DNA of 52,394 nt, taken from NCBI GenBank assembly GCA_964360835.1, contig CAYHYG010000003.1, positions 1 to 52,394 on the forward strand. Reading direction: 5' to 3'. A program made the translations under genes and the position numbers. The notes beneath the pieces were generated by a model. It was not told where the DNA came from, searched no databases, and was given only the letters and a program-made list of their open reading frames with translations. This document shows positions 17,494 to 42,450 of the stretch, in pieces; position 1 is the first letter of the stretch, and each line of letters opens with the position of its first letter. This DNA comes from an uncultured Gammaproteobacteria bacterium (GTDB lineage Bacteria; Patescibacteriota; Patescibacteriia; UBA1558; 2-01-FULL-52-15).

Positions 17494-19068
17494 CTAGAGG
17501 TCAAGATCAATGCAAGTTTGGTTCGTCGGTGGCCTACAACTTATATCAGGACTGGGACACGGACTTACCCAACTACCGTTTACTAATTGCTTATTACAGG
17601 TACACACTCGTCTTTGAAACCCATTAGTGCATGGGGTCCAATTAGTGCAGGCCCATTGGTAAATACTACATTGAGGAGGGGTTACCCCTATGACTATACC
17701 GGAACAAGTAAGATTACATGCACCTTCTACAGAATTACTATTAGCCGCACCATCATCACAGACCTCTGTAAATCCTTGAGCGCCATTGGGTCTATTCACA
17801 TATCCATCACCGCATGTAGTCAACCGACATTCGTTGGTGCAGGTATCAAGGTTAGATATATCTCCATCATCACACTGCTCAATGAAGCCAACGCCATTAG
17901 GTGATTGCAGTTGACCATCACCACAAACGGTATATCCAGTACAACGGGCATTACAACGACCGCTATTTGTCTGGGTAATATCAGAGCCATAGGCCTCACT
18001 ACCAACAGTGTCAAAACAAACTGGCTGAACGGTATCTGTGATGGCTCTTTGTTGGCAATTGGCCGTTCCACAATGCTGACTGCATCCCACTCCTGTGTCA
18101 GCGCACACCCCACACAGCGCTCCATAGGGCTCCAGCTGTGGTGAGGTTACATTCTTGATAATGCTGGCTTCGGAGAATATCACGTACTGAAAAATATCAG
18201 ACAAGGCGGGATTAAATGGCGTGGTCACGGTTATCTCTTGGCTGGCGTTTCGGAAGCGTCCACGCGTCTGTATGGAAACCAGCGAGGGTAATCCGGCGCT
18301 ATTGTCTGTGGTGACAGAAAGTCGTTTCAGACCGTCGTCGATCGGGCGGATTGAAACATGGTAGAACTTGCTAGGAGTCAGGGATAATCTGCTGATTGTT
18401 GTATTACACTGGTTTGGAGTAACTCCACTACCGGTACAATCGCAAATAAAATAGTACTTCTGAGGCCGGCCAAACTGCAGACCGCTGGCATTCTGGAAAG
18501 TCACCAGGGAAACCTCCAATCTCTGACTGCCGCCGCAGGCCTTGACCTCCCAGTCAATCTTCAACTGATTGGCTTGTGTATCAATAACTGGATGAATAAC
18601 CGTCGGCGTTTCCTGGGTTGGATCAAAGACATTTAACTGCGCCGAAGAAAAAATTGGTAAATCATAGACAACGTATTCAGGTGAGGTTGTAGAAATTTTG
18701 ATGATATCATAGAGACGGTCTTTATCAGCATATGGACTTGGTGATATATAGGTTCTGTCCAACTGACGATTTAAGGTATTACTACGATTAAAAAACAAAT
18801 AATAAGGATACGGTGTCACCAGCTCGTCCAATCCTTTAGACTCTTTTAAAAACCAGAGCATCTCCTCGGCCGCGCTTTCAGCCGCGTAATGAGCTACTAC
18901 AGAGCTATCGAGATACCGCGCCGAGTTGATCTCTGTGATCAATAGACGACTGAGGGCAATGGTGGCAAACATGGTGATAGTTAATATCACCAGAGACATG
19001 AGCAAAACTGCTCCCCGGCTTGGATCCTGTAAAGACTTTCTTTTGCTACTGAATATTTCTGGGCGCAT
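17494..19068 (-). CDS. PilX-like minor pilus protein with C-terminal Cys-rich CGDG/CDDG repeats
   Basis: PilX_N-like SRGAVLLMSLVILTITMFATIAL. C-terminal CGDGQLQSPNGVGFIEQCDDG...C.NEC..TTCGDGYVNRPNGAQGFTEVCDDG resembles the Myxococcus-type cysteine-rich repeat. Confidence 0.55.
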   Translation of the reverse strand: MRPEIFSSKRKSLQDPSRGAVLLMSLVILTITMFATIALSRLLITEINSARYLDSSVVAHYAAESAAEEMLWFLKESKGLDELVTPYPYYLFFNRSNTLNRQLDRTYISPSPYADKDRLYDIIKISTTSPEYVVYDLPIFSSAQLNVFDPTQETPTVIHPVIDTQANQLKIDWEVKACGGSQRLEVSLVTFQNASGLQFGRPQKYYFICDCTGSGVTPNQCNTTISRLSLTPSKFYHVSIRPIDDGLKRLSVTTDNSAGLPSLVSIQTRGRFRNASQEITVTTPFNPALSDIFQYVIFSEASIIKNVTSPQLEPYGALCGVCADTGVGCSQHCGTANCQQRAITDTVQPVCFDTVGSEAYGSDITQTNSGRCNARCTGYTVCGDGQLQSPNGVGFIEQCDDGDISNLDTCTNECRLTTCGDGYVNRPNGAQGFTEVCDDGAANSNSVEGACNLTCSGIVIGVTPPQCSIYQWACTNWTPCTNGFQRRVCTCNKQLVNGSWVSPCPSPDISCRPPTNQTCIDLDL

Positions 19069-19858
19069 AATAACGTGTAGAAATCATAGTTTGAAAAAGG
19101 AGCGTCCGCTGACGCGCTACGTTAGCATTATTGGTGGCCGTCATCTGGATGGAAGTAAATGGCTGTTCTGTGGGATCGTCATTAGGATAAAATACCAAGG
19201 AGTCAATCCGAATACTGGGATCATTGAGGACTGACCAGCTAGCGCCCGAACATGAGGTACTATGACTAAGCTCGGCATTGAGATTAACGGCATTATGACG
19301 GATAAAAGTTGTCTGACCGCTCAAATCTTTGAGACAGATAAAATTGACATCCGGACAATTGCAGGTCGTCGGATCGGTATCAATAGTATGAGAGCGAATC
19401 TCGCGAGCAATCTGCTCAAATACCAACTGACTCTCGTTCAAAACAGCGACATTGGCTCTAGCATTATTCTGAGCTGTAGTCGTACCGATAAAAATCGAGC
19501 TAATTGCAATGAAAGCCAATGAAAAAATAGCAATCGTGACCAACATTTCTACTAGAGTATACCCAGCACCATTTTCAAGTAAGCTGTATTTAGCTCTTTT
19601 TTTAAACTCTCTTGAAGCATTGCCATGAGCTTTTAGCCTTTGTTCACGCTCTCGTGCATCAGCTTCCGAATTATATGCTTCATAAGCCACTACTTTCCAC
19701 GGCCTATACGGCCTAGTTGAAGTAACAAGCCCTTCATTATGCTCGTTTAACCTTCTATCTAAATTTTTGGTTGAGCCCATATATGTTTTACCTGTTTTTA
19801 CACTTTGTATTAAGTAGACGAAGTACATAAAAAATGGTGCTGGGCATATCCTTTTCAT
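19046..19858 (-). CDS. GIY-YIG nuclease domain fused in frame to a PilW-like type IV pseudopilin
   Basis: MKRICPAPFF-MYFVYLIQSVKTGKTYMGSTKNLDRRLNEHNEG...RPWKVVAYEAY..EADAREREQRLKAHGN...LLENGAG|YTLVEMLVTIAIFSLAF. The track start (19867) is GTG; ATG at 19858 follows the upstream stop by 1 nt. Confidence 0.8.
   Translation of the reverse strand: MKRICPAPFFMYFVYLIQSVKTGKTYMGSTKNLDRRLNEHNEGLVTSTRPYRPWKVVAYEAYNSEADAREREQRLKAHGNASREFKKRAKYSLLENGAGYTLVEMLVTIAIFSLAFIAISSIFIGTTTAQNNARANVAVLNESQLVFEQIAREIRSHTIDTDPTTCNCPDVNFICLKDLSGQTTFIRHNAVNLNAELSHSTSCSGASWSVLNDPSIRIDSLVFYPNDDPTEQPFTSIQMTATNNANVARQRTLLFQTMISTRYYAPRNIQ
19562..19844 (-). mobile_element. GIY-YIG element copy 1 (intact): 283-bp unit bounded by 14-bp perfect inverted repeats
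   Basis: On the plus strand, cccagcaccatttt (19562-19575) and aaaatggtgctggg (19831-19844) are exact reverse complements enclosing the GIY-YIG coding segment. Confidence 0.7.
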
Positions 19859-19859
19859 A

Positions 19860-20585
19860 TTATTCACGCCAGTTATATAATTTCTCTTTGACCGTCACCA
19901 TCTGACTACTGCCATACTTAACAATACCCGTGACCAATACGCCTATCTTGACATCACCAGTTGCACAGGAGAGACCGTACTCTCTGGTGCTCTCTACGTC
20001 ATTCGTGTCATTCCAGCAAATATCCTGAAGCACCACCAGCCGATGGAGCGATTCGTTATAACCATAGCCTACGGGAATACCGAAAGACAGAGCACAAAGG
20101 TCGCCAGCCATTTTTAAACAAGAACACATATAGTCCAATCTCTGACAACCAGATGAAAACGGATCAGGTACATCAACTTTGGTAAAACTATAGGTATCAG
20201 GGGTTCCCTGGCCTACTATGAAGGCCGGCGCCACAGACGCACCACTAACACCGGCAAATCGATCCCACGTGTAGGGTGTCGTTCCGGCTAGTATATTCAG
20301 ATCACTGCGCAGCCAATTGGTGTCACGAGTATTGCGTACGGCTTCGACCGCTGAGCGGGCTAGGTTAGCGGCAAAAACCCGACTGATATTATCTCGCGAA
20401 GCCCGATAATTTGATGTAGCCAGCACCAGAGCTCCGACCAAACCAGTGACAATGACGGCCAAAGCAATGATTACCTCTATCAAGGTGAACCCAGCATCAT
20501 TTTTTTGCCGCTTATTTTCCTCGTGTAACGAAATGCCTAAATTTCCTTTCATCTTTTGATTTTCAAAAAATTGTATCATCTGCAT
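19860..20585 (-). CDS. PilV-like type IV pseudopilin with an atypically long 32-aa leader
   Basis: MQMIQFFENQKMKGNLGISLHEENKRQKNDAG|FTLIEVIIALAVIVTGLVGALVL. The leader is encoded by the miniature element. Confidence 0.75.
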   Translation of the reverse strand: MQMIQFFENQKMKGNLGISLHEENKRQKNDAGFTLIEVIIALAVIVTGLVGALVLATSNYRASRDNISRVFAANLARSAVEAVRNTRDTNWLRSDLNILAGTTPYTWDRFAGVSGASVAPAFIVGQGTPDTYSFTKVDVPDPFSSGCQRLDYMCSCLKMAGDLCALSFGIPVGYGYNESLHRLVVLQDICWNDTNDVESTREYGLSCATGDVKIGVLVTGIVKYGSSQMVTVKEKLYNWRE

Positions 20586-20604
20586 AAAAATAATGCTGGG
20601 TTCA
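20486..20604 (-). mobile_element. GIY-YIG element copy 3: internally deleted miniature derivative (119 bp) with 19-bp inverted repeats (18/19 match)
   Basis: On the plus strand, tgaacccagcatcattttt (20486-20504) versus aaaaataatgctgggttca (20586-20604). The 81 nt between them keep an ORF from the ATG abutting the repeat. Confidence 0.65.
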
Positions 20605-20606
20605 TC

Positions 20607-21194
20607 TCAGCAACCACTTAAACTTTGCTCTATACGCAGAGAAGAATCTTGCGCTGTAGGAGCGAACTTGATTGAAGCAATACAACTATTACCAGTTACC
20701 CGTATCTGAAATATTATATTGCTACTATTCTGAGTCCAGAACTGTAAACAAAGAGGAGCTCCACAATTATTCTGCAGTTTAGGGAAGCTGTCTCCGTCAA
20801 AAATAATAGTCCCCTTGGCAATAGTACCCACACTACCGTTAAGAAAACGAAAATTAACATTGTTGGAAAGAGTATACGTCGCGACTCCTTCATCACTGTC
20901 ATAGATACCGTCATCACTTTTATCCGCGAACAAAATATACTGACGTGGCGTCACGGTGTTATCGAGGTACAAACCCCAACCCCCGGCTGGATAGACACTA
21001 TCAGCAGGGTTGACAATGCCATTGAAAGCTCTGTTCCTAGCCTGACGCAGGACAGCTACGACGCGATCAGCATCGGCTTTGATAATATCTTTGGTACCCA
21101 CTCCGCGCATTGTGACCACAGCAATCCCCATCAAAATACCGAAAATAGCGATGACGACTAAAAGTTCTATCATAGTATAACCATTTACTTTCAT
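20607..21194 (-). CDS. GspH/FimT-like type IV pseudopilin
   Basis: MKVNG|[22 protein letters not shown]...LRQARNRA. The ATG at 21194 overlaps the pilD stop (ATGA). The track's N-terminal extension is unlikely. Confidence 0.75.
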   Translation of the reverse strand: MKVNGYTMIELLVVIAIFGILMGIAVVTMRGVGTKDIIKADADRVVAVLRQARNRAFNGIVNPADSVYPAGGWGLYLDNTVTPRQYILFADKSDDGIYDSDEGVATYTLSNNVNFRFLNGSVGTIAKGTIIFDGDSFPKLQNNCGAPLCLQFWTQNSSNIIFQIRVTGNSCIASIKFAPTAQDSSLRIEQSLSGC

Positions 21195-21958
21195 GGCAGT
21201 AAAACTAAATTCTGATACCAGTCCCATATCTGGCCGCCGTAGAGCATGGCTATGAATGTAGACAAACTAAGAAAGGTACCAAATGGCACTTGGCTGGTCA
21301 TTTTCTTGCGACCGAGAATGATCAAAAAAATTCCAATAATACTGCCGGATAAATAAGCGATCATCAGCGCCACCGTAATCTGCGGCCACCCCAGAAGTAG
21401 TCCCATCGCCAACCCCAGCTTGACATCACCGAAGCCAATCCAGCGACCATGTGAAACCAGATACTGCAACCCAAAGAATCCAGCGCCAACCAGAGAGCCT
21501 ATCAAAAGATCCAGCCAGGATCGGCCTAACAATAAATTGCTCATGGCGCTGATCACGGCTAGTGGCCAGACAATTACATCCGGAATAATGTAATGTTTGA
21601 GGTCATAGACAAAGATGATAGCTAGTAGTGAAGTAACTATTATACCGCTAATAAAACCAATGATTGATAAAGGGTCTGTCAACGAATACATGGTACCAAG
21701 CATGACAAAAGCCAGGCCCATAGCTACCTCCACCAGTGGATATTGCACCGAGATAGACTTGTGGCAGTAGCGGCACTTTCCGACCAATATGATCCAGCTG
21801 ATGAGCGGTACCAAATCAATCCAGCTCAAGGAATGTCTACAGTCTGGGCAACGGGAACGCCCTTTGATAAACGACTCGTCCAAGCGCAGACGGTAAATCA
21901 CGGCATTGAGAAAACTGCCGATAATGAGGCCAAAGACAAAAAGAAAAAATAGTATCAT
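21191..21958 (-). CDS. pilD: Prepilin peptidase / N-methyltransferase (A24 family)
   Basis: 255 aa polytopic protein. CPDC...CRYC zinc motif and GFGDVKL active-site Asp motif. Confidence 0.9.
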   Translation of the reverse strand: MILFFLFVFGLIIGSFLNAVIYRLRLDESFIKGRSRCPDCRHSLSWIDLVPLISWIILVGKCRYCHKSISVQYPLVEVAMGLAFVMLGTMYSLTDPLSIIGFISGIIVTSLLAIIFVYDLKHYIIPDVIVWPLAVISAMSNLLLGRSWLDLLIGSLVGAGFFGLQYLVSHGRWIGFGDVKLGLAMGLLLGWPQITVALMIAYLSGSIIGIFLIILGRKKMTSQVPFGTFLSLSTFIAMLYGGQIWDWYQNLVLLP

Positions 21959-22002: not shown

Positions 22003-22731
22003 TTATGGAGTTGTACTAGTTACACATCCCGTTTCAGTACATGTAATGGTTTTCCCGCCCGAGAGACAGGTTGTTGGTAACGGGAAAGTGGTTGATGATG
22101 GCTCACAAGCAGAAAAAGTAAAGGTCGCAGAATCTGAATTTGAGTTAGCCAAGAATTTATAAATCCAGGGGTTTCTAGTGTCTTTGGCTAAATCGGGCCA
22201 TGTTCCAACTGCTGGGCTATCATTCAAACAGATAGCCGATGTCGCGTCTGGTTTTCCTAGCGGACCAGAAGCAGCTCCATTACAAGCATCCATACCCGCC
22301 GGCGCCGCGCAATTCAGTTGCACATTGCTCTGCAAACAGACTGAAGCCCCTTTCAGTAGATTATTCATGGTTGACTCCATCTGGGTCAACTTGGCTTTTG
22401 TACGGGTTGAAGATAAATTTACAACCGCCACAGCAGATAGTATGCCTATAATGGCAATGACTACCAAAAGTTCAATTAAAGTAAACCCAGCACCATTTTT
22501 CAAACTTCCCCGAGCTCTTCTCTTTAATTCTTTAATGGCATTTCCATGTGCTTTTAATTTTTGTTCATGCTCTCTTGCATCTGCTTCTGAGCTATAGGCC
22601 TCATAGACAGCGAGCCTCCATGGCCTGTATGGTTTTGTTGAGCTAACTAAACCGTCATTATGCTCCTGGAGCCTTCTCTCTAAATTATTTGTGGAACCCA
22701 TATAAATTCTATTTATTTTTAAACTTTTCAA
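22003..22731 (-). CDS. Type IV pilin carrying a truncated GIY-YIG domain as an N-terminal extension
   Basis: ...IYMGSTNNLERRLQEHNDGLVSSTKPYRPWRLAVYEAYSSEADAREHEQKLKAHGN...SLKNGAG|[24 protein letters not shown], with a Cys-rich C-terminal globular part. The track start is TTG; the first ATG is at 22701. Confidence 0.75.
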   Translation of the reverse strand: MKSLKINRIYMGSTNNLERRLQEHNDGLVSSTKPYRPWRLAVYEAYSSEADAREHEQKLKAHGNAIKELKRRARGSLKNGAGFTLIELLVVIAIIGILSAVAVVNLSSTRTKAKLTQMESTMNNLLKGASVCLQSNVQLNCAAPAGMDACNGAASGPLGKPDATSAICLNDSPAVGTWPDLAKDTRNPWIYKFLANSNSDSATFTFSACEPSSTTFPLPTTCLSGGKTITCTETGCVTSTTP

Positions 22732-22859
22732 GGAGCTTGTCTAGATCTTTAGAGTAGTTCTAAGATTAAGACATGCCCCAGAAGATTCTAAAAGGTAGTC
22801 GGTTAAGTAACCGGACGGTAGGCAATATATAGACAAAATACATAAAAATGGTGCTGGGT
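22485..22859 (-). mobile_element. GIY-YIG element copy 2 (ORF disrupted), bounded by 16-bp perfect inverted repeats
   Basis: On the plus strand, acccagcaccattttt (22485-22500) and aaaaatggtgctgggt (22844-22859) are exact reverse complements. The orphaned prepilin start ATGAAGAAGGGATTTA lies just outside, with its ATG at 22874-22872. Confidence 0.7.
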
Positions 22860-22894
22860 AAATCCCTTCTTCATATTTTATTTTACTATTTATA

Positions 22895-23498: not shown

Positions 23499-23960
23499 CT
23501 AACAACTAGCAGCAACACCCTTTATACACCCATTACTCGAATCGCAGACAATACACACATCTTGATCAATATTACGCATAGAAAATTCCCATCTTTGACT
23601 GCTGGCAGTGTATTCGCATGGTAGATAGGTAAAATTATAGGTACCAATATATGGCCAGGTACCGAGATTACCAACCGTGCAAAAAGGATCTCCGTCTCTT
23701 GGCGTATTCTGAATAGGAGTACCATCACCACAGGTAATAGGTCCACTACCGTCGTTACGGCTAGTGATCTGACCACCAGAATCAGTACATAGCATCATAC
23801 CGGCAATCAAATTATTAGCCGAAGCCTGACCAGCTGCGACTTTAGCCTTACCACGAGCGCTATTCAAGTTGACGATAGAGATAGCTGACAAGATACCGAT
23901 AATGGCGATGACGACCAGTAATTCTATCAGCGTAAAACCTTTTGTACTCACTCCTTTCAT
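23499..23960 (-). CDS. Type IV pilin (paralog 2)
   Basis: MKGVSTKG|[32 protein letters not shown], with a Cys-rich C-terminus. The track's upstream extension overlaps the preceding pilin gene and is not credible. Confidence 0.85.
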   Translation of the reverse strand: MKGVSTKGFTLIELLVVIAIIGILSAISIVNLNSARGKAKVAAGQASANNLIAGMMLCTDSGGQITSRNDGSGPITCGDGTPIQNTPRDGDPFCTVGNLGTWPYIGTYNFTYLPCEYTASSQRWEFSMRNIDQDVCIVCDSSNGCIKGVAASC

Positions 23961-24033
23961 ACACATAGTATACCAAACAAAATACAGACTGTCTTGATGA
24001 GATAGTCTGTATTTATCTAATAACAACCGATAA

Positions 24034-24477
24034 CTAACATCCAACGTATGTACATCCTGAAGCAGCGCTACAGGTAATAGTACAGGTACCATTAGATGCC
24101 TGAAAGGAGAAGGTGCTATTCGGCTTGTCCGATATACATCCCGTAGCACCAGCCGCGCCGTAAGTAAATCCGTTACCTAAAATAACTGGCCAATTACCAA
24201 TATTGGCAACGCTACAGAATGATCCACCAGGAGTAATCGCAAGGCCGCTCGCTGCAACTGCTGGGCAGGTTGCTGCGGCTCCGTTTTGAATTACGCCGGT
24301 CGCATCATCCTGACAAATTACTAATCCCGGGATTACACCACTCAATGCAGCCTTGGCGGCAGCAATCTTGGCCTTATCACGAGCTGAGTTCAAGTTGACG
24401 ATGGCGATAGCTGAGAGAATACCGATAATAGCGATAACCACCAACAATTCGATCAAGGTAAAACCTTTTTTATTCAT
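24034..24477 (-). CDS. pilA: Type IV major pilin candidate
   Basis: MNKKG|[33 protein letters not shown] strong SD (GGGAGGTG) precedes the ATG, and the gene has its own promoter. 147 aa. Confidence 0.85.
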
Positions 24478-25899: not shown

Positions 25900-26973
25900 T
25901 TATTGCTTAACCATTAGCTGGAGACCGTTAGGGTCTACGGCATATTTGGACGCCTGGTCTAGCGACAGAATACCTGCTTTGACCAGGTCAGCCAAACTAC
26001 GATCCAGAGTAATCATACCATCCTGACGCGAAGTCATCATCACATTGCTCAGTTGGAAAAAATTACCGTCACGCAGAACGTTACGCACCGCGCCATTCAT
26101 AGTCAAAATGCCAGAAACAAGCTGCAAACTGTTATCAGATTTGGGGACTAAGCGCTGATTGGTCATGATCAGGAGATGCTCCGAGATAATATCCTTGGCC
26201 CACTGCTGCTCCGATGGAGGTATCAGACCCATGAATGACTCCAGAGTCGTGGATATAGACAGACCATTCAAAACCACCAACACCAATTTACCACCCTCGA
26301 CCGCCTGCAATATTGCTACTTCCTCAGCCGCTTCATTGACATGAGCTACCACGATGACATCGACATCAGCATCTACCGCTTCATGAAGTCCGTCGATGAA
26401 AGACGGCACATCAGTACCGACCTGACGCTGATGAATGACTGATTTATTATTGACCAACTGATATTCAATTGGTTGTTCTAAAGTTAAAATGTGTCGACTT
26501 TGTGTCTGGTTGACATATTCCACCAGACTAGCCGCAGTGGTCGAACGTCCAGAATTATACGGTCCAGAGATAAAGATCAACCCTTTGGTCTTGGCCATAG
26601 CAGCGATCAACATTGGTGAGATCTGTAGCTCCTTGGGCAAAAGTAATCTTGGCGGTATCACCCGTAAAGATAAAGACATATATCCACGTTGATAAAATAC
26701 CTGGGCTCGGAATCTAGCCCGATCAGCCCAAGTATAGACCGTGGCCACCTCGCGCTGTCGTTGTAAGGCTTCGTTTTCTGCAGGAGACAAAAAAGATTCT
26801 GCCACAGTATTCAGGACATCAGGTGTCAAAATCTGATCCTGGGTGGCTGTCACCAGCTGACCATTGATGCGATAGACCGGATAATTGCCGACGGTCAAGT
26901 GAATATCAGTGGCCTTGCGCTCCAGAGCGTCGTTCAGAATTTTATTCAGCAGTAAGCTGGTGGTGGTGCTCAT
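25900..26973 (-). CDS. pilT: Type IV pilus retraction ATPase
   Basis: 357 aa. Walker A GPYNSGRSTT, TLEQPIEY, and PilT-like length and layout. Confidence 0.85.
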   Translation of the reverse strand: MSTTTSLLLNKILNDALERKATDIHLTVGNYPVYRINGQLVTATQDQILTPDVLNTVAESFLSPAENEALQRQREVATVYTWADRARFRAQVFYQRGYMSLSLRVIPPRLLLPKELQISPMLIAAMAKTKGLIFISGPYNSGRSTTAASLVEYVNQTQSRHILTLEQPIEYQLVNNKSVIHQRQVGTDVPSFIDGLHEAVDADVDVIVVAHVNEAAEEVAILQAVEGGKLVLVVLNGLSISTTLESFMGLIPPSEQQWAKDIISEHLLIMTNQRLVPKSDNSLQLVSGILTMNGAVRNVLRDGNFFQLSNVMMTSRQDGMITLDRSLADLVKAGILSLDQASKYAVDPNGLQLMVKQ

Positions 26974-27362
26974 GATTGACTAATAATCTTTTTGATCCTT
27001 TCCACCACCTCTGACGGTACGAAATGCGCCTTGATCAGATAATCTTCCGCTCCCAGATTGAGGCATCTATCAATGTGTTCCTTTTGACCATAGTTAGTCA
27101 GGACTAATACGGGTATCGACTTGGTCTCAGGATTTTTCTTTAACTCTTCCAAAACCTGGAAGCCGTCCATAATCGGCAAATTTAGATCCAAAAGTATCAG
27201 ATCTGGTCTTTCTTTGGTGGCCATTTTTAGACCCTTAGCGCCGTCCGTGGCCATAAAAACGACATAATTTTCTATCTCCAATTTGGTCGCATACATCTGC
27301 ACCAAAAAGTCGTCGTCTTCGACAATGAGAATTTTTTTTGATTCTGCCATAGTGTTATTCAT
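26970..27362 (-). CDS. CheY-like single-domain response regulator
   Basis: ILIVEDD...DLILLDLNLP..DG...T.. K. 130 aa. ATGA overlap with pilT. Confidence 0.85.
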   Translation of the reverse strand: MNNTMAESKKILIVEDDDFLVQMYATKLEIENYVVFMATDGAKGLKMATKERPDLILLDLNLPIMDGFQVLEELKKNPETKSIPVLVLTNYGQKEHIDRCLNLGAEDYLIKAHFVPSEVVERIKKIISQS

Positions 27363-39500: not shown

Positions 39501-39982
39501 TCACTTATTGAACTACTGCTCAGCTGTAATAATCCAGAAAATGATGCCGCTACACCCTGAGTCGAGCTGGCCATCAAGGCATAACCACTACCCAACATGT
39601 TATTCTTAACTATTAAGGCAGGAGTATCAGTAGCAGAACTGCTAACTTGTAACCCTGTGTTATCCTGACTGCGGATGGAAGCCGCCAAGCCGGTTAAATA
39701 CGATGAAGCAGTCAGTCCATAGGGCCGTAAGGTGTTATTGCCGATGCCGTAGAGATGAAAATTATTGAGATTGACATCCTTTGTAGCTACATGGTCGCCC
39801 AAACCGTCGTTACCAGAACCTTCGATTAATTCAACGCCAGAAAAAAGCGGCGGAAAATCACTTGCGCTTGGGGCCACGTACTCATTAACCGCCTGAGCCA
39901 AATGCAAAGCCGTACTAACTGAAATGATAGCCACTGTAATCAGAAGCCGATACCAAATTTTGACAGGTAGCTTCATACTCAT
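36536..39982 (-). CDS. Giant surface protein, paralog 2: module pair + kelch-like repeats + LVIVD beta-propeller repeats
   Basis: Repeats of the form YRDKIYWG, YRDKLYAI, YRNKLYIG and GDKLYFN. LVIVD-type units NRLYAV..GVKVVDITNPAAP, LLVLDISNPN, LFVIDVSNPFAP and GLRIYDVQNPTAP. Confidence 0.55.
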   Translation of the reverse strand: MSMKLPVKIWYRLLITVAIISVSTALHLAQAVNEYVAPSASDFPPLFSGVELIEGSGNDGLGDHVATKDVNLNNFHLYGIGNNTLRPYGLTASSYLTGLAASIRSQDNTGLQVSSSATDTPALIVKNNMLGSGYALMASSTQGVAASFSGLLQLSSSSISEIPQLRWSGVGASTYNRLSVASTGLGNNPDLSLLYGNQWLCDITQPNCGRVLNTTGDDLGSHVATYNLDMRGLRVHNVSNGVYRLFTFQKLATTSLQALSSGTGEGWRSFSPATYGIVATTSLTNNSSFTTYREFTEASRFSPDAAVYRDKIYWGTKNEGFLADFFYQHGGLYPTDDWVKKNTASIAHANCAGLDLSPVALEVYRDKLYAILISDPSVAGHPITRLYTYDAATNVETCYRSTDLTLPSGFADFNSIAAMSVYRNKLYIGVGNATCDVLSSTNGTSWTKEFSFSTMSSPMTECRSTYRMMSRGDKLYFNFWTNRFGANPVQLYQYNGTTASSLQPPNIGTVGAFPYPNLGNGWVWYNDSLYVAGITNLIWKYENGAWSTITSAGMTPPTTANDGAWSMAVYENNLFLEMTGTPSLRFDLSSPSATWQAHNSHNSWMSTYRGALLSPDGGATVAGVASAAIGYNSGSGYGALGWSVAGPGARFYSGVRIDHDYDLGLEPQLTFGSDDNRLSIMSATSTASSNLYWGDKLLCNRSLPNCGWADSASSENIWKTNAQGDIYTHHLAGIALTDNQQQKLAIGMTGNEGLTVRTLNYSSVGSYSAMQIQGNRLYAVTNQGVKVVDITNPAAPTLLGTISTPFIGEVDDPSLEVSGNFAYLTLTNQRLLVLDISNPNTSTPNYFVMTIPGTTVWRAMALRNHTLFLGGYGSVLGDPTLFVIDVSNPFAPQLLHSSAVGSYIDDLAMQGRYLYIANRTQGLRIYDVQNPTAPISVGQYTSAGESMYLVRLQGNQAVLLSTGSGLPDFMKLRLIDIASPTSPQELSSRIFPPSAPEEMGWLGEYLYTVRSTPSGSDFITYRISESGIGILGFRDVASSAGFRGLAVSGTELYTQQYDGSPASVDLLYVLSGLGASTTNLSASKADIGSASILGALSTDNFYSLSGLSLQNGLTLSSGPLASGNGKIKIGNTILDKTLLDQLLVWLSS

Positions 39983-42450
39983 AGGCCGGCTTTAGTCTTT
40001 AAACCGCTTAAGCGAGTCTGATCCAAAACAGTTCCATTTAAGAGTAACCCTTCAGTGGCCGGTAAAGTTATCGTGCCCCAGACAGACATAGACCCTCCTA
40101 GCGCTCCGGCTCCAAACGTCGCATTACCACCTATTCGTAACGTCCGATCAACATTCAGATCATAAGCAGTGAAACTGGCGGTAGAAACTAAACTGGAACG
40201 AAATCCTTGATTGTTTATCAAATACAATCCTTGATCCCCGTAGGAGATAAACATAGTATCACCCTGTATGGTAAAACGATCTGAATTTCCTGGTATGGAT
40301 CCTATAGGTAACGTGTCGCTCCCACTAATTGTCGGTACTTGTGACGTATCATGATAATAAAGCGCATTATACGAAATATGCACATATCCATCTTCCACCA
40401 CAACCCCTCTAACAGAGGGATCAGCATATGTATTAGGAAAGCTACCGTCATCGGTGTCAGCGATGTGAGTCAAACTATTACCCGAAAAACGCCAGATGTT
40501 TAATTCATCAGAGACAAAATAAAGTAAATCTCCATCGACCGCTATGCCCCTTACCGGTTTGACAGATCCTGATGTTAGGGCGTCCTTCAGGAGGAAGCTG
40601 GCGGGATTGCTGATGTCATACCATAAAACCCGACCATTACTAGCATTTGAGACCTCGCCAACAAATAAATTATTACCTGAGATTGCCAAGTCCCTAGGCC
40701 CTGTGACGTTGAGACCGGCAGCTAGAACAGGTGTGCTAGGAGTACTAACATTTATCGATTCCAAACGTGGTTGACCATTACATGGTCCAGAGTTTGTGCG
40801 ATAATAGCTGACATAAGCGTAATTGCCGCTAACAACTACATCTGTAGGATGGCTATTGGGGAATTGAAAGGTTGGGATCATTTCATTGGATTCTGTGCAG
40901 TAAGAATAACCACTGCCTACTTGAGATGGCTGATGAGGCTGACTAATATCTACAATTTTTAGACCTGTCATTGTGGCTATATAGGCATACTTACCCGATA
41001 CTGCCAGACCCCAAGCAGGAGAAGCCAATGCTAGAGTAGAAATAACACGGGGCACACTTAAATTCGTAACGTCAACAACGTGTAAGCTACCGCCTCCACT
41101 CACCCCAGCATTATTTTGAGTACTTGCTACATAAGCATATTTACCCACAACCGACACATCGCGTGCGTGAGCACCGGAAGGTAGCGCTACTATACCCAAT
41201 ATATAATTTGAACTTGACTCCTGTCCGGCTACATAACTATGTCTGACATCCAACTTGGCATCACGACGGACATCGGTACCAAGTAAGACATTTTTGGTAG
41301 CGCTGGGCGGTTCTGGGAAATGTATACCCAGACTATTAGCTGTCCAGGGACTCGTTCCGCCGCCTGGAGCCACAATACCGCAATTTGGCTGTGAGCTGTC
41401 GCAGAGACGCGTGTTACCCCAATATAGTGGACTCTTCGGCACTATGGCTACACCACTTGTATTTAACGTATCACCACTCCGTTGTCCAAAATGTAAAACT
41501 GATTCTTGACCCACCAGCGGATCTATCATAATTTCCAGCGGACTACTAACTTTCAAGCCATAGCCGCGCCAAGAAGACGACCGTAAACCTGGACTATTAG
41601 CCAGACTTCTGGCATAGATACCGGCTGAGGTATCAGACTGGGGACTGCTAGCGCGACTAAAAATGCCATAATTATCTAAAGCCCTGATAGCCACCGAGCT
41701 GGTGGCTGTTTCACCGGAAATTTGCAGGATTGAAGTCTCCACCGTTGAAGCGGCGGAATATAATCTTTTACCCGACATATTCAAAGTCGTGGTAGCTATA
41801 TGATTACCCAGACCATCACCTACACCGGTAGCGTTAGAAACAAAGCCACAATTTGACCTGTCTGGATAACATAAAATTTGGCTGCCCCAGTAGAGCGGAC
41901 TTTTGGCCTGACTATGACTGCTGGTGGCGAGTATATTGGTTATATTATTACCGATAACCAGACCCCTCTCAGCGACCGTATTGCCGTAAAAAAGCGCCCC
42001 TCTGCCACTAACTGAACGGGCATCTAGGGCCAAACTCTTACTTTCATTTATGACTGACAATCCAACGTGAGTCGGCTGATTGGAAAACGTCTCCGTCAAG
42101 ATCGCTGAAGCATCAATACTGGTAATCAAACTGCCTGTCGCCTGCCCTTGATAAACACCAACTCTCAAAGCTGTCTCATTATCGGTGCTGGAGATACCGT
42201 GCAAGCGAAAATGATTCAGATCCAGGTCCTGATAACCTTTATGAGGATTGATAAAAGGATTTCCACGTCCCAAATTATCTCCATTAATAGGATCAAGCGG
42301 CAATAAATTTGGAGTGTTGTCTGGCGGTGGATTTACCGATATCTGCCAGAGCTGCGCCTGTGCCGAATGATGTTGCACAGACAAAAACCAACCCGCAGCC
42401 ACAATCAAAACAAATGTTAAGAAAAAATAATAACCTGAACGAAAATTCAT
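39979..42450 (-). CDS. Giant surface protein, paralog 1: module pair + LVIVD beta-propeller repeats
   Basis: GDNLGRGNPFINPH...LDLNHF and GDGLGNHIATTTLNMSG. SPLYWGSQILCYPDRSNCGF and SPLYWGNTRLCDSSQPNCGI. KYAYVA...LHVVDVTNLSVP and KYAYIATMTGLKIVDISQPHQP. Confidence 0.55.
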   Translation of the reverse strand: MNFRSGYYFFLTFVLIVAAGWFLSVQHHSAQAQLWQISVNPPPDNTPNLLPLDPINGDNLGRGNPFINPHKGYQDLDLNHFRLHGISSTDNETALRVGVYQGQATGSLITSIDASAILTETFSNQPTHVGLSVINESKSLALDARSVSGRGALFYGNTVAERGLVIGNNITNILATSSHSQAKSPLYWGSQILCYPDRSNCGFVSNATGVGDGLGNHIATTTLNMSGKRLYSAASTVETSILQISGETATSSVAIRALDNYGIFSRASSPQSDTSAGIYARSLANSPGLRSSSWRGYGLKVSSPLEIMIDPLVGQESVLHFGQRSGDTLNTSGVAIVPKSPLYWGNTRLCDSSQPNCGIVAPGGGTSPWTANSLGIHFPEPPSATKNVLLGTDVRRDAKLDVRHSYVAGQESSSNYILGIVALPSGAHARDVSVVGKYAYVASTQNNAGVSGGGSLHVVDVTNLSVPRVISTLALASPAWGLAVSGKYAYIATMTGLKIVDISQPHQPSQVGSGYSYCTESNEMIPTFQFPNSHPTDVVVSGNYAYVSYYRTNSGPCNGQPRLESINVSTPSTPVLAAGLNVTGPRDLAISGNNLFVGEVSNASNGRVLWYDISNPASFLLKDALTSGSVKPVRGIAVDGDLLYFVSDELNIWRFSGNSLTHIADTDDGSFPNTYADPSVRGVVVEDGYVHISYNALYYHDTSQVPTISGSDTLPIGSIPGNSDRFTIQGDTMFISYGDQGLYLINNQGFRSSLVSTASFTAYDLNVDRTLRIGGNATFGAGALGGSMSVWGTITLPATEGLLLNGTVLDQTRLSGLKTKAGL

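Follow-up and report, generated by a model that had tools for sequence, protein, structure and literature searches.

How a pilin gene comes to begin with a nuclease is the question raised by contig CAYHYG010000003.1 (assembly GCA_964360835.1), which was deposited as DNA of an uncultured Gammaproteobacteria bacterium and is placed among the Patescibacteriota in GTDB. The stretch analysed here, called the window below, comprises 52,394 nucleotides and contains a cluster of type IV pilus genes. In one of these genes a GIY-YIG nuclease domain, bracketed by inverted repeats, occupies the place of the prepilin leader peptide. We consider it probable that this segment is a small nuclease element with terminal inverted repeats and hairpin-only derivatives, which has inserted between the codons for Gly-1 and Phe/Tyr+1 of prepilin genes and bears the signature of mobile DNA. 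The observations behind this reading are the anatomy of the element, its recurrence, the duplications that flank it, leaders stranded upstream of it, empty sites in related genes, the unrelatedness of the host pilins and the conservation of the nuclease core.

A nuclease domain in place of a prepilin leader

The affected gene, copy 1, has the following parts.

19046-19867, minus strand: longest open reading frame (ORF) of copy 1, which is intact; 273 aa from a GTG start, nuclease, linker and prepilin
19845-19858, minus strand: ATGAAAAGGATATG, possibly what is left of the original leader and of the opening codons of the mature part, stranded ahead of the left arm
19831-19844, minus strand: left terminal inverted repeat (CCCAGCACCATTTT), ending 2 nt ahead of the nuclease ATG
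19826-19828, minus strand: ATG, the likely start of the fusion
19616-19828, minus strand: GIY-YIG catalytic domain (Pfam PF01541, aa 14-84)
19562-19575, minus strand: right terminal inverted repeat (AAAATGGTGCTGGG on the coding strand), encoding (E)NGAG
19049-19561, minus strand: mature minor-pilin part (YTLVEM..., 171 aa)

The first-pass annotation of this DNA had quoted the coding strand and its frame correctly. On the minus strand GTG AAT AAT ATG AAA AGG ATA TG leads into CCCAGCACCATTTT, followed by TT ATG TAC TTC GTC TAC, and at the other end CTT G precedes AAAATGGTGCTGGG and then TAT ACT CTA GTA GAA. The two 14-mers (19831-19844 and 19562-19575) are, as it had said, exact reverse complements; the arm pair can be extended to 18 nt with one mismatch, and the element measures 283 bp. 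Its claim of a GIY-YIG domain is borne out by a match to Pfam PF01541 over aa 14-84 of the 273-aa ORF (E = 1e-15, 58.2 bits against a cut-off of 22.6). The domain also runs without a stop codon into the canonical prepilin site that it had described, ENGAG↓YTLVEM with Glu at +5 (the arrow marks the scissile bond), and the Gly-1 codon, GGG (19562-19564), is the final triplet of the right arm.

The same ORF matches the prepilin N-terminal family N_methyl at aa 101-122 (PF07963, E = 8e-5) as well as the NCBIfam model IV_pilin_GFxxxE and TIGR02532, and the mature pilin has weak, sub-threshold similarity to GspJ, ComGF and PpdB. Depending on the start codon chosen, the leader is 72-102 aa long, outside the range of a short hydrophilic leader (~5-30 aa). 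No in-frame ATG, GTG or TTG was read in the last ~30 codons before the cleavage site and no stop codon intervenes, so that the pilin part of copy 1 is not translatable alone. Comparison with copy 2 and the metagenome loci, both described below, suggests that the ATGAAAAGGATATG stretch is a possible stranded original leader, though less clean than that of copy 2; it ends in TATG, and TATA follows the right arm. The identical copy 1 protein was found on four independently assembled contigs.

Further copies in the same pilus cluster

The cluster contains six prepilin genes, three of which carry the arm pair at the same codon, directly ahead of Gly↓Phe/Tyr.

22486-22858, minus strand: copy 2, with the same exact 14-nt arms at 22845-22858 and 22486-22499
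22859-22874, minus strand: relic original leader of copy 2 (ATGAAGAAGGGATTTA), ATG AAG AAG GGA TTT A, read as MKKGF(T)
20490-20600, minus strand: nuclease-less mini element of 111 nt, with arms CCCAGCATTATTTT and AAAATGATGCTGGG at 20587-20600 and 20490-20503
20607-21227, minus strand: uninvaded prepilin MKVNG↓YTMIE, with the empty site AAT GGT TAT ACT and the Gly codon from 21182
23499-24477, minus strand: two uninvaded major-type prepilins, MKGVSTKG↓F (Gly codon 23939) and MNKKG↓F (Gly codon 24465), paralogues of the host gene of copy 2
21191-21958, minus strand: prepilin peptidase of the PilD type (Pfam A24_N_bact, E = 3e-32; Peptidase_A24, E = 2e-14)

The short leaders of the three uninvaded genes (MNKKG↓F, MKGVSTKG↓F and MKVNG↓Y) agree with those listed in the first-pass annotation. 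Allowing up to two mismatches, CCCAGCACCATTTT has 7 matches in the window against 0.35 expected, a number reached in none of 100 shuffles. A lone half-site at 41104-41117 (plus strand, 2 mismatches), inside the ORF at 39979-42450 and without a partner, is probably due to chance and was treated as such.

In copy 2 the GIY-YIG frame is broken after MYFVYIL by an insert with stop codons, and the domain is still recognized by Pfam GIY-YIG (E = 6.5e-12). This insert of ~91 nt (22732-22822, minus strand) sits between MYFVYIL and KSLKINRIYMGST; no further copy of it was found in the window or the fetched loci, except in L002, which overlaps the window region. Copy 2 is joined to a major-type pilin (ORF 22003-22731; PF07963, E = 4.5e-8). 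Its original leader is preserved upstream of the left arm, and the TTTA that ends this relic recurs directly past the right arm (GCTGGG TTT ACT). The relic matches the uninvaded paralogues, which read ATG AAT AAA AAA GGT TTT ACC and ...AAA GGT TTT ACG. At the protein level the nucleases of copies 1 and 2 are 67% identical, whereas their pilins share the first 15 residues only; the same cassette has thus come to lie on two unrelated genes of one genome.

The mini element contains no nuclease. It has 83 nt between its arms and an inverted repeat of 33 nt at 82%. The arms have diverged, with one compensatory change (C:G to U:A) and one change that yields a G:T pair, and as single-stranded DNA (ssDNA) the element folds with a z-score of -5.5. 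An ATG one base past the left arm (20583-20585) opens a 39-aa leader that ends in KNDAG↓FTLIE, in a pilin ORF at 19860-20585. In Rfam, one sub-threshold microRNA match reflects the hairpin shape only, and there was no match to introns or riboswitches.

One insertion site and its empty alleles

A scan of metagenome contigs was seeded on the left arm and the start of the nuclease ORF only, without bias towards the 3′ side, and returned 33 loci. In 28 of these a prepilin site (mostly KSGAG↓FTLIE) lies 276-409 nt downstream, counting one short copy (L149) with the site at 85 nt. Three loci, with two different sequences among them, have pilin-like membrane proteins as fusion partners and show a variant junction, and the remaining two end at contig ends. 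The loci hold 26 distinct elements, 25 of 279-412 nt (median 310) and one of 88 nt. Identical 4-nt flanks (TTTA, TTCA or TACA) border 17 of the 26, including the rare pairs TACA/TACA and TTCA/TTCA; a Gly codon (GGN) precedes 19; and a complete in-frame old leader (MKGF, MKKGF, MSTKKGF, MKGY, MRTQRGF and others) abuts the left arm in 14. Together, the flanks, the preceding Gly codons and the stranded leaders place the element between the Gly-1 and Phe/Tyr+1 codons, with TWYA duplicated. The empty site of a prepilin gene has the sequence AAAGGTTTTACCTTGATCGAA.

Among the closest relatives of the copy 1 pilin, one has a 6-aa leader (P0152, MRQQSG↓YTLVEM), one lacks the arms (P0151/L125) and one has two nuclease-less repeat units (P0002/L001). 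Moreover, the window pilin at 20607-21227 is empty, whereas its counterpart in the syntenic locus L001 (L001:1116-1940; relatedness judged by eye from the translations) is filled and reads GGGGGTTTA[CCCCGC...GCGGGG]TATACG.

The first-pass annotation had favoured an insertion over a fixed domain fusion. That view has held up on each point raised: the nuclease profile match is strong; three window prepilins have the arm pair at the same codon, and many Patescibacteria genomes have it at the 5′ ends of prepilin genes; presence and absence vary among related pilins, as just described; and the original short leader is still found upstream of the left arm, both in copy 2 and in those 14 metagenome elements.

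The nuclease and the family of fusions

The nuclease together with the N-terminus of the pilin served as query for an exhaustive HMMER search, which gave 5337 cluster representatives (50% identity) at E ≤ 1e-3. A prepilin cleavage motif is present in 91 of the 150 best representatives, and 90 were taken as GIY-YIG-prepilin fusions. These are 105-612 aa long and share the junction ...ELKKRIGL..K(S/N)GAG↓FTLIE. Their leader parts are similar in all 4005 possible pairs, the globular parts of the pilins in 187. The median leader length is 94.5 aa (range 65-178), and 66 of the 90 have no Met within the last 25 leader residues. Word-indexed protein searches returned two matches for the fusion N-terminus and three for the mature pilin; they were useful for finding relatives of the copy 1 pilin and too insensitive for a census, which made the exhaustive search necessary.

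The public gene calls start the window protein at M30 (P0001, 19046-19780, 244 aa) and that of copy 2 at MGST (232 aa), so that the first strand of the nuclease is lost and the architecture is hidden in protein databases. Some pilin-like partners are very large, such as P0023 (612 aa), P0139 (600 aa), P0085 (514 aa) and, at the upper end, a 1040-aa ORF from L136:3587 onward. Giant “modular” pilins, too, are hosts of the element.

The nuclease core is kept in at least 95% of the fusions. Twelve positions (Y5, Y16, G18, R26, H30, N31, P43, W44, Y49, E50, R61 and E62) are at least 90% conserved among 47 aligned sequences, and all are present in copy 1; we take these columns to include the catalytic Tyr of GIY, Tyr of YIG, Arg, Glu and His/Asn. 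In the PDB, the sequences nearest to the copy 1 domain are 1zg2 (UPF0213, E = 6e-5) and SLX1. We built an AlphaFold2 model on the alignment of the fusions, with residue 1 at the ATG of 19828 (mean confidence, pLDDT, 87). It predicts a compact GIY-YIG domain (residues 1-78, block pLDDT ~84-98), a low-confidence linker that includes the cleavage site (residues 79-91, block mean 59) and, directly after it, the long pilin helix alpha1 (residues 92-146) followed by a beta domain. The best Foldseek matches of the model were UPF0213 protein BH0048 (1zg2; probability 1.00, E = 2.7e-3) and a minor pilin from Streptococcus sanguinis. By profile, core residues and predicted fold, the copy 1 domain is assigned to the GIY-YIG superfamily. 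The module spans ~85-95 aa, has no extra DNA-binding domain and is fused to a pilin in the window.

Arms, hairpins and short derivatives across genomes

We also scanned species-representative genomes with a pattern for the right junction, which gave at least 119 stretches, where ~140 chance matches are expected by arithmetic. Matches in Pseudomonas, Streptomyces, Bacteroidota and other such genomes had neither a partner arm nor a pilin and were treated as chance. In metagenome-assembled genomes (MAGs) of Patescibacteria, which are ultra-small bacteria, among the matches listed, the partner arm CCC(A/C)GCACCAYTTT lies ~11-390 nt upstream of the right junction. MAGs with the arm pair carry the labels Saccharibacteria, Kaiser-, Wolfe-, Jorgensen-, Kerfeld-, Magasanik-, Komeili-, Doudna-, Zambryski- and Falkowbacteria, among others. 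The pair also occurs in MAGs titled “uncultured Gammaproteobacteria” (L008, L012, which has a GIY-YIG gene, L019, L029, L111 and L118); either these labels are wrong or the element exists outside the Patescibacteria.

Seven loci of the genome scan (L009, L012, L030, L076, L084, L100 and L110) have arms on both sides of the nuclease, as in the window, and show the order left arm, short gap, ATG, GIY-YIG, right arm and pilin. In six of the seven the arm starts 6-11 nt before the domain start defined by the hidden Markov model, and in L100 60 nt before it. At L069, L076 and L084 a complete hairpin separates the nuclease from the pilin behind it. Hairpin-only units are found in pilin leaders at many loci; measured between the outermost bases of their arms (first C and last G), they span ~33-120 nt. 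The motif also forms stand-alone hairpins at several loci within single MAGs (for instance CAYQQI01 and MFLV01), so that the hairpin is multi-copy there. Locus L001 combines a free-standing GIY-YIG gene (L001:687-986) with 105-nt units, of which three pilins have one or two each; all of these units are read through in frame. Other relatives of the nuclease are bicistronic with the pilin (L130 and L012).

A second unit of 99 nt (91-94% identical) stands ahead of each L001 pilin (L001:459-557, 1067-1165 and 1965-2063). Its first bases, CC(C/A)GCACCACTTTC, resemble a left arm, and its last are the ATG from which the long leaders are read; the unit may be a transferable cassette of promoter and start codon.

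The arms covary: the A/C at position 4 is correctly paired in 89 of 93 pairs. The inner stems vary by locus and stay complementary, up to perfect palindromes of 34-48 nt, and as ssDNA the arm pairs fold far better than shuffled sequences (z-scores from -5.5 to -8.2). Mismatches of the G:T and A:C type are both rare and about equally frequent, so that they fit pairing in RNA and in DNA, and on either strand, alike.

Near-perfect to perfect intergenic palindromes of the form GTATACCC(C/A)GCACCACTTT...AAAGTGGTGC(G/T)GGGTATAC were noted in other Patescibacteria genomes at L031:7325-7370, L044:5149-5192, L056:181-224, L074:4153-4196, L090 and L119. At all six, TATACT lies 6-7 nt ahead of the ATG of a long ORF; L022 has the same TATACT spacing without passing the test for a long ORF. 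This TATACT resembles the -10 box of a leaderless transcript, or else a target preference.

A proposed route of insertion and expression

The ends of a full element read CCC(A/C)GCACCAYTTT ... AAARTGGTGC(T/G)GGG, with a single-domain GIY-YIG nuclease of 85-95 aa as the sole gene and a 4-nt direct repeat (TTTA, TTCA, TACA or TATA) on either side. The nuclease ATG lies ~0-10 nt inside the left arm, and the frame continues through the right arm, read as K/E-S/N-G-A-G. The terminal GGG of the element rebuilds Gly-1, and the duplicated TTYA Phe+1. Such a layout keeps the host gene usable, and its product would be a prepilin with a folded nuclease of 65-178 residues as cytoplasmic leader. Translation of the fusion presumably starts at the nuclease ATG. 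In type IV prepilins the leader remains on the cytoplasmic side of the membrane, so that a folded leader domain need not cross it. The PilD-type peptidase encoded at 21191-21958 is the enzyme expected to remove the prepilin leaders; by cutting at Gly↓Phe/Tyr it would leave a normal mature pilin in the membrane and release the nuclease into the cytoplasm. By analogy with the Ssn nucleases discussed below, the nuclease may act on its own arms or hairpin and so move the element, either by a transposon-like staggered cut at TWYA or through a homing-like repair event.

Comparison with known systems

The Ssn family comprises GIY-YIG proteins of ~94 aa whose genes are flanked by hairpin repeats and which cut ssDNA beside the hairpin; an architecture like that of insertion sequences (IS) was noted for them and mobility left open (PMC11893778). 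The likeness to Ssn/NTS/SRM (cd10448; Chenal et al. 2025, PMC11893778) lies in a ~90-aa single-domain GIY-YIG gene bracketed by inverted or hairpin repeats that recur elsewhere in the genome, and in the link with pili and natural transformation. In contrast to Ssn, whose gene has a complete short hairpin on each side, the flanks here are two halves of one 14-19-bp stem, and the element lies in frame inside a coding gene, joined to a prepilin. The published SRM consensus (HGTCWY...) has no match in the window, where 0.32 are expected, and the arms lack its GTC tag and form a longer stem. The published family phylogeny dropped proteins above 150 aa, and neither fusions nor candidate phyla are mentioned (PMC11893778). 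By sequence and fold, the closest solved relatives of the copy 1 nuclease are the UPF0213/YhbQ and Slx1 domains (PDB 1zg2, 1ywl and 4xlg), which, unlike copy 1, belong to free-standing or RING-fused repair proteins without repeats and without a pilin. The nearest system appears to be Ssn/SRM by architecture, and UPF0213/YhbQ and Slx1 by sequence and predicted fold.

Short palindromes multiply in the repetitive extragenic palindrome (REP/REPIN) systems with their RAYT enzymes and in IS200/IS605, where an enzyme gene lies between inverted repeats and the enzymes recognize hairpins. A single enzyme gene flanked by inverted palindromic repeats is what we see here too. However, their enzymes are HUH/Y1 transposases, REPs are extragenic, and a 4-nt flanking duplication is not known to be made. 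Both systems have been discussed beside Ssn (PMC11893778).

More broadly, the element resembles a transposon with terminal inverted repeats, or a MITE (miniature inverted-repeat transposable element), in its covarying arms of 14-19 nt, its three window copies, its short non-autonomous derivatives and its empty sites. Among the window ORFs searched with Pfam, no DDE, HUH, serine or tyrosine recombinase was found in the element, whose only ORF is the GIY-YIG domain. Rickettsia palindromic elements and in-frame MITEs are palindromes that persist within ORFs with the frame kept open, and non-autonomous copies outnumber autonomous ones. They share the terminal inverted repeats with the pilin element, and the 4-nt flanking repeat of the latter may correspond to their short target duplication. 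Yet the Rickettsia elements have many insertion positions and lengthen the protein by a permanent peptide, whereas the pilin element uses one codon boundary, in a segment that is normally cut off, and carries its cognate enzyme inside.

The homing endonucleases of introns and inteins, and free-standing GIY-YIG enzymes such as I-TevI and the Seg proteins, are selfish nucleases that lodge at conserved sites, with the insert removed during expression. The pilin element has in common with them the GIY-YIG chemistry, one conserved host site with empty alleles, and spread among paralogues and species followed by decay. It differs in the lack of a separate DNA-binding domain and in its transposon-like terminal inverted repeats and flanking duplication. 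Moreover, removal would be performed by the host leader peptidase instead of by self-splicing of RNA or protein. The junction itself has all the marks of a class III signal peptide (Gly-1, Phe/Tyr+1, Glu+5, a hydrophobic alpha1 helix and a gene for a PilD-type peptidase nearby), but leaders of 65-178 residues with a folded enzyme contrast with the usual unstructured ~5-30.

What is new is the niche, in that the insert replaces a leader peptide which the host removes anyway. Our literature searches found no paper describing a GIY-YIG-prepilin fusion, and none describing selfish DNA kept in a gene by way of a leader-peptide niche. We advance a further proposal, on which we stand close to an even balance, leaning slightly to doubt. 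It holds that a selfish nuclease gene could persist harmlessly in an essential-type gene by occupying the leader peptide of a secreted or membrane protein, from which a host leader peptidase would excise it after translation, in addition to the two routes offered by self-splicing introns and by inteins. The element would also be the smallest autonomous DNA element (~280-400 bp, a ~90-aa protein acting on its own hairpin ends), specialized on the best-conserved stretch of type IV pilins and spread across the Patescibacteria. We know of no smaller autonomous DNA element.

Alternative explanations

Several observations weigh against a mobile element of this kind. Known prepilin leaders measure ~5-30 aa, and a folded leader of ~90 aa exceeds them by far; that such a leader is tolerated and cleaved by the peptidase would have to be assumed. 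With the M30 start chosen by gene callers, the nuclease would lack its first strand. Recent, near-identical copies were not seen (73-76% DNA identity between copies 1 and 2), which calls for caution about current mobility. The 4-nt duplication always derives from the same conserved codons, and GGGTWTACCC is itself near-palindromic, so that a true target-site duplication does not separate cleanly from repeat extension or co-conversion. Fusion is also not obligatory, as the bicistronic loci L130 and L012 demonstrate: here the nuclease ORF comes to its stop within the element, where the pilin also has a new start, in L130 as MNIKGLKSGAG↓F after the nuclease stop and in L012 with a new leader, MKMRKRSVGLPSTTFPSSKSGAG↓F, that holds a whole hairpin. 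Finally, an active-looking nuclease kept on ~90 pilin clusters could mean that the fusion is useful to the host.

This last point leads to an alternative that we consider unlikely, namely a domesticated fusion in which an Ssn-like ssDNA nuclease is tethered to the membrane by the prepilin helix and processes or polices incoming ssDNA with hairpin motifs. The pilin part would then mainly be a targeting anchor near the pilus or DNA-uptake machinery, and such a function could coexist with a selfish origin. In its favour, Ssn/NTS modulates natural transformation in Neisseria (PMC11893778), Patescibacteria are thought to import DNA via pili and ComEC (PMC12455944), the fusions are located in pilus gene clusters, and the nuclease core is conserved across the ~90 fusion clusters. 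Nevertheless, the host pilins are mutually unrelated, two otherwise intact window pilins hold a broken copy and one without a nuclease, former leaders lie stranded upstream, the domain is missing from related pilins, and bicistronic versions exist. Taken together, these features resemble repeated invasion and decay and not one selected architecture. An even less probable alternative is that the palindrome has mainly a cis-regulatory role, as promoter or operator or as a structure in mRNA or ssDNA, with the GIY-YIG ORF as a passenger in its loop. The six intergenic hairpins with TATACT ahead of a start codon would fit such a role, as would the conserved 99-166-nt units with arms and a start codon that precede each L001 pilin. 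However, in the pilin genes the right arm is coding and reaches as far as the scissile codon instead of lying in a 5′ untranslated region, TTTAC flanks are not -10-like, and no Rfam family was matched. The nuclease start, ~0-10 nt past the left arm in copies seeded on the right arm, argues for a single unit, and the stranded leaders and flanking duplications would be left unexplained.

Since inverted repeats lie inside the gene for a surface protein, and genes with predicted inversions include more pilins than expected (PMC9881135), a phase-variation switch was also weighed, in which the repeats would be sites of programmed inversion that turn the pilin on and off; the mention of GIY-YIG and prepilins together in that paper is incidental (PMC9881135). 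We give this reading very little credence. Among the ORFs scanned, no recombinase gene was noticed in or beside the cluster, and the inverted orientation of 19576-19830 has no ORF of at least 40 aa across it. Furthermore, arm spacing is ~11-390 nt, with many copies being hairpins too short to invert, and no locus has the segment in the opposite orientation. It would be just as surprising if the insert were removed before the protein is made, like an intron or a bypassed segment, or were an artefact of assembly or gene calling. The arms could pair in RNA and so join both ends (z-score -3.8), but no group I or II intron of Rfam was matched at E up to 1, nor was any other Rfam family, intein domains were absent by Pfam, and the ORF takes up nearly all of the 283 nt, too much for a ribozyme to fit in as well. 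In ~90 clusters the frame stays open throughout the element, and the four independently assembled contigs with the identical protein speak against an artefact. We prefer insertion of a small nuclease element at the leader boundary as the explanation of the locus.

Implications

If the peptidase indeed removes the nuclease, post-translational removal by a host enzyme would be a new principle for phenotypically silent mobile DNA, and prepilin peptidases would be able to process leaders that contain a whole folded domain. The element also provides a natural system for asking whether GIY-YIG nucleases of the Ssn type with hairpin repeats are mobile elements, and would supply new pairs of a small ssDNA/hairpin nuclease and its target sequence. 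With regard to annotation, many pilins of Patescibacteria have been called with truncated or odd N-termini, and leaders that end in xSGAG or xNGAG may be footprints of the element. As both DNA uptake and attachment to the host centre on pili in these episymbionts, an element that targets every pilin gene could shape the expression and diversification of pilins. Moreover, GIY-YIG ORFs have been reported in rRNA gene insertions of the Candidate Phyla Radiation that are neither group I nor group II introns (PMC11270868), and these may be related to the pilin element. Should those insertions carry the same arms, an RNase III-type removal of the long stem would parallel the proposed removal by the peptidase.

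Neighbouring genes

Genes for PilC, a PilT-like protein, PilB and PilM lie upstream in the same cluster, and a stand-alone response-regulator receiver gene (26970-27362, minus strand) is located between the genes for the PilT-like and PilB ATPases. At the other side, a 524-aa Cys-rich protein without a Pfam match (17494-19068, minus strand) overlaps the end of the copy 1 pilin gene and has a counterpart of 505 aa in the syntenic locus (L001:3627-5144). With its N-terminal hydrophobic segment, this protein may be a pilus tip or adhesin component.

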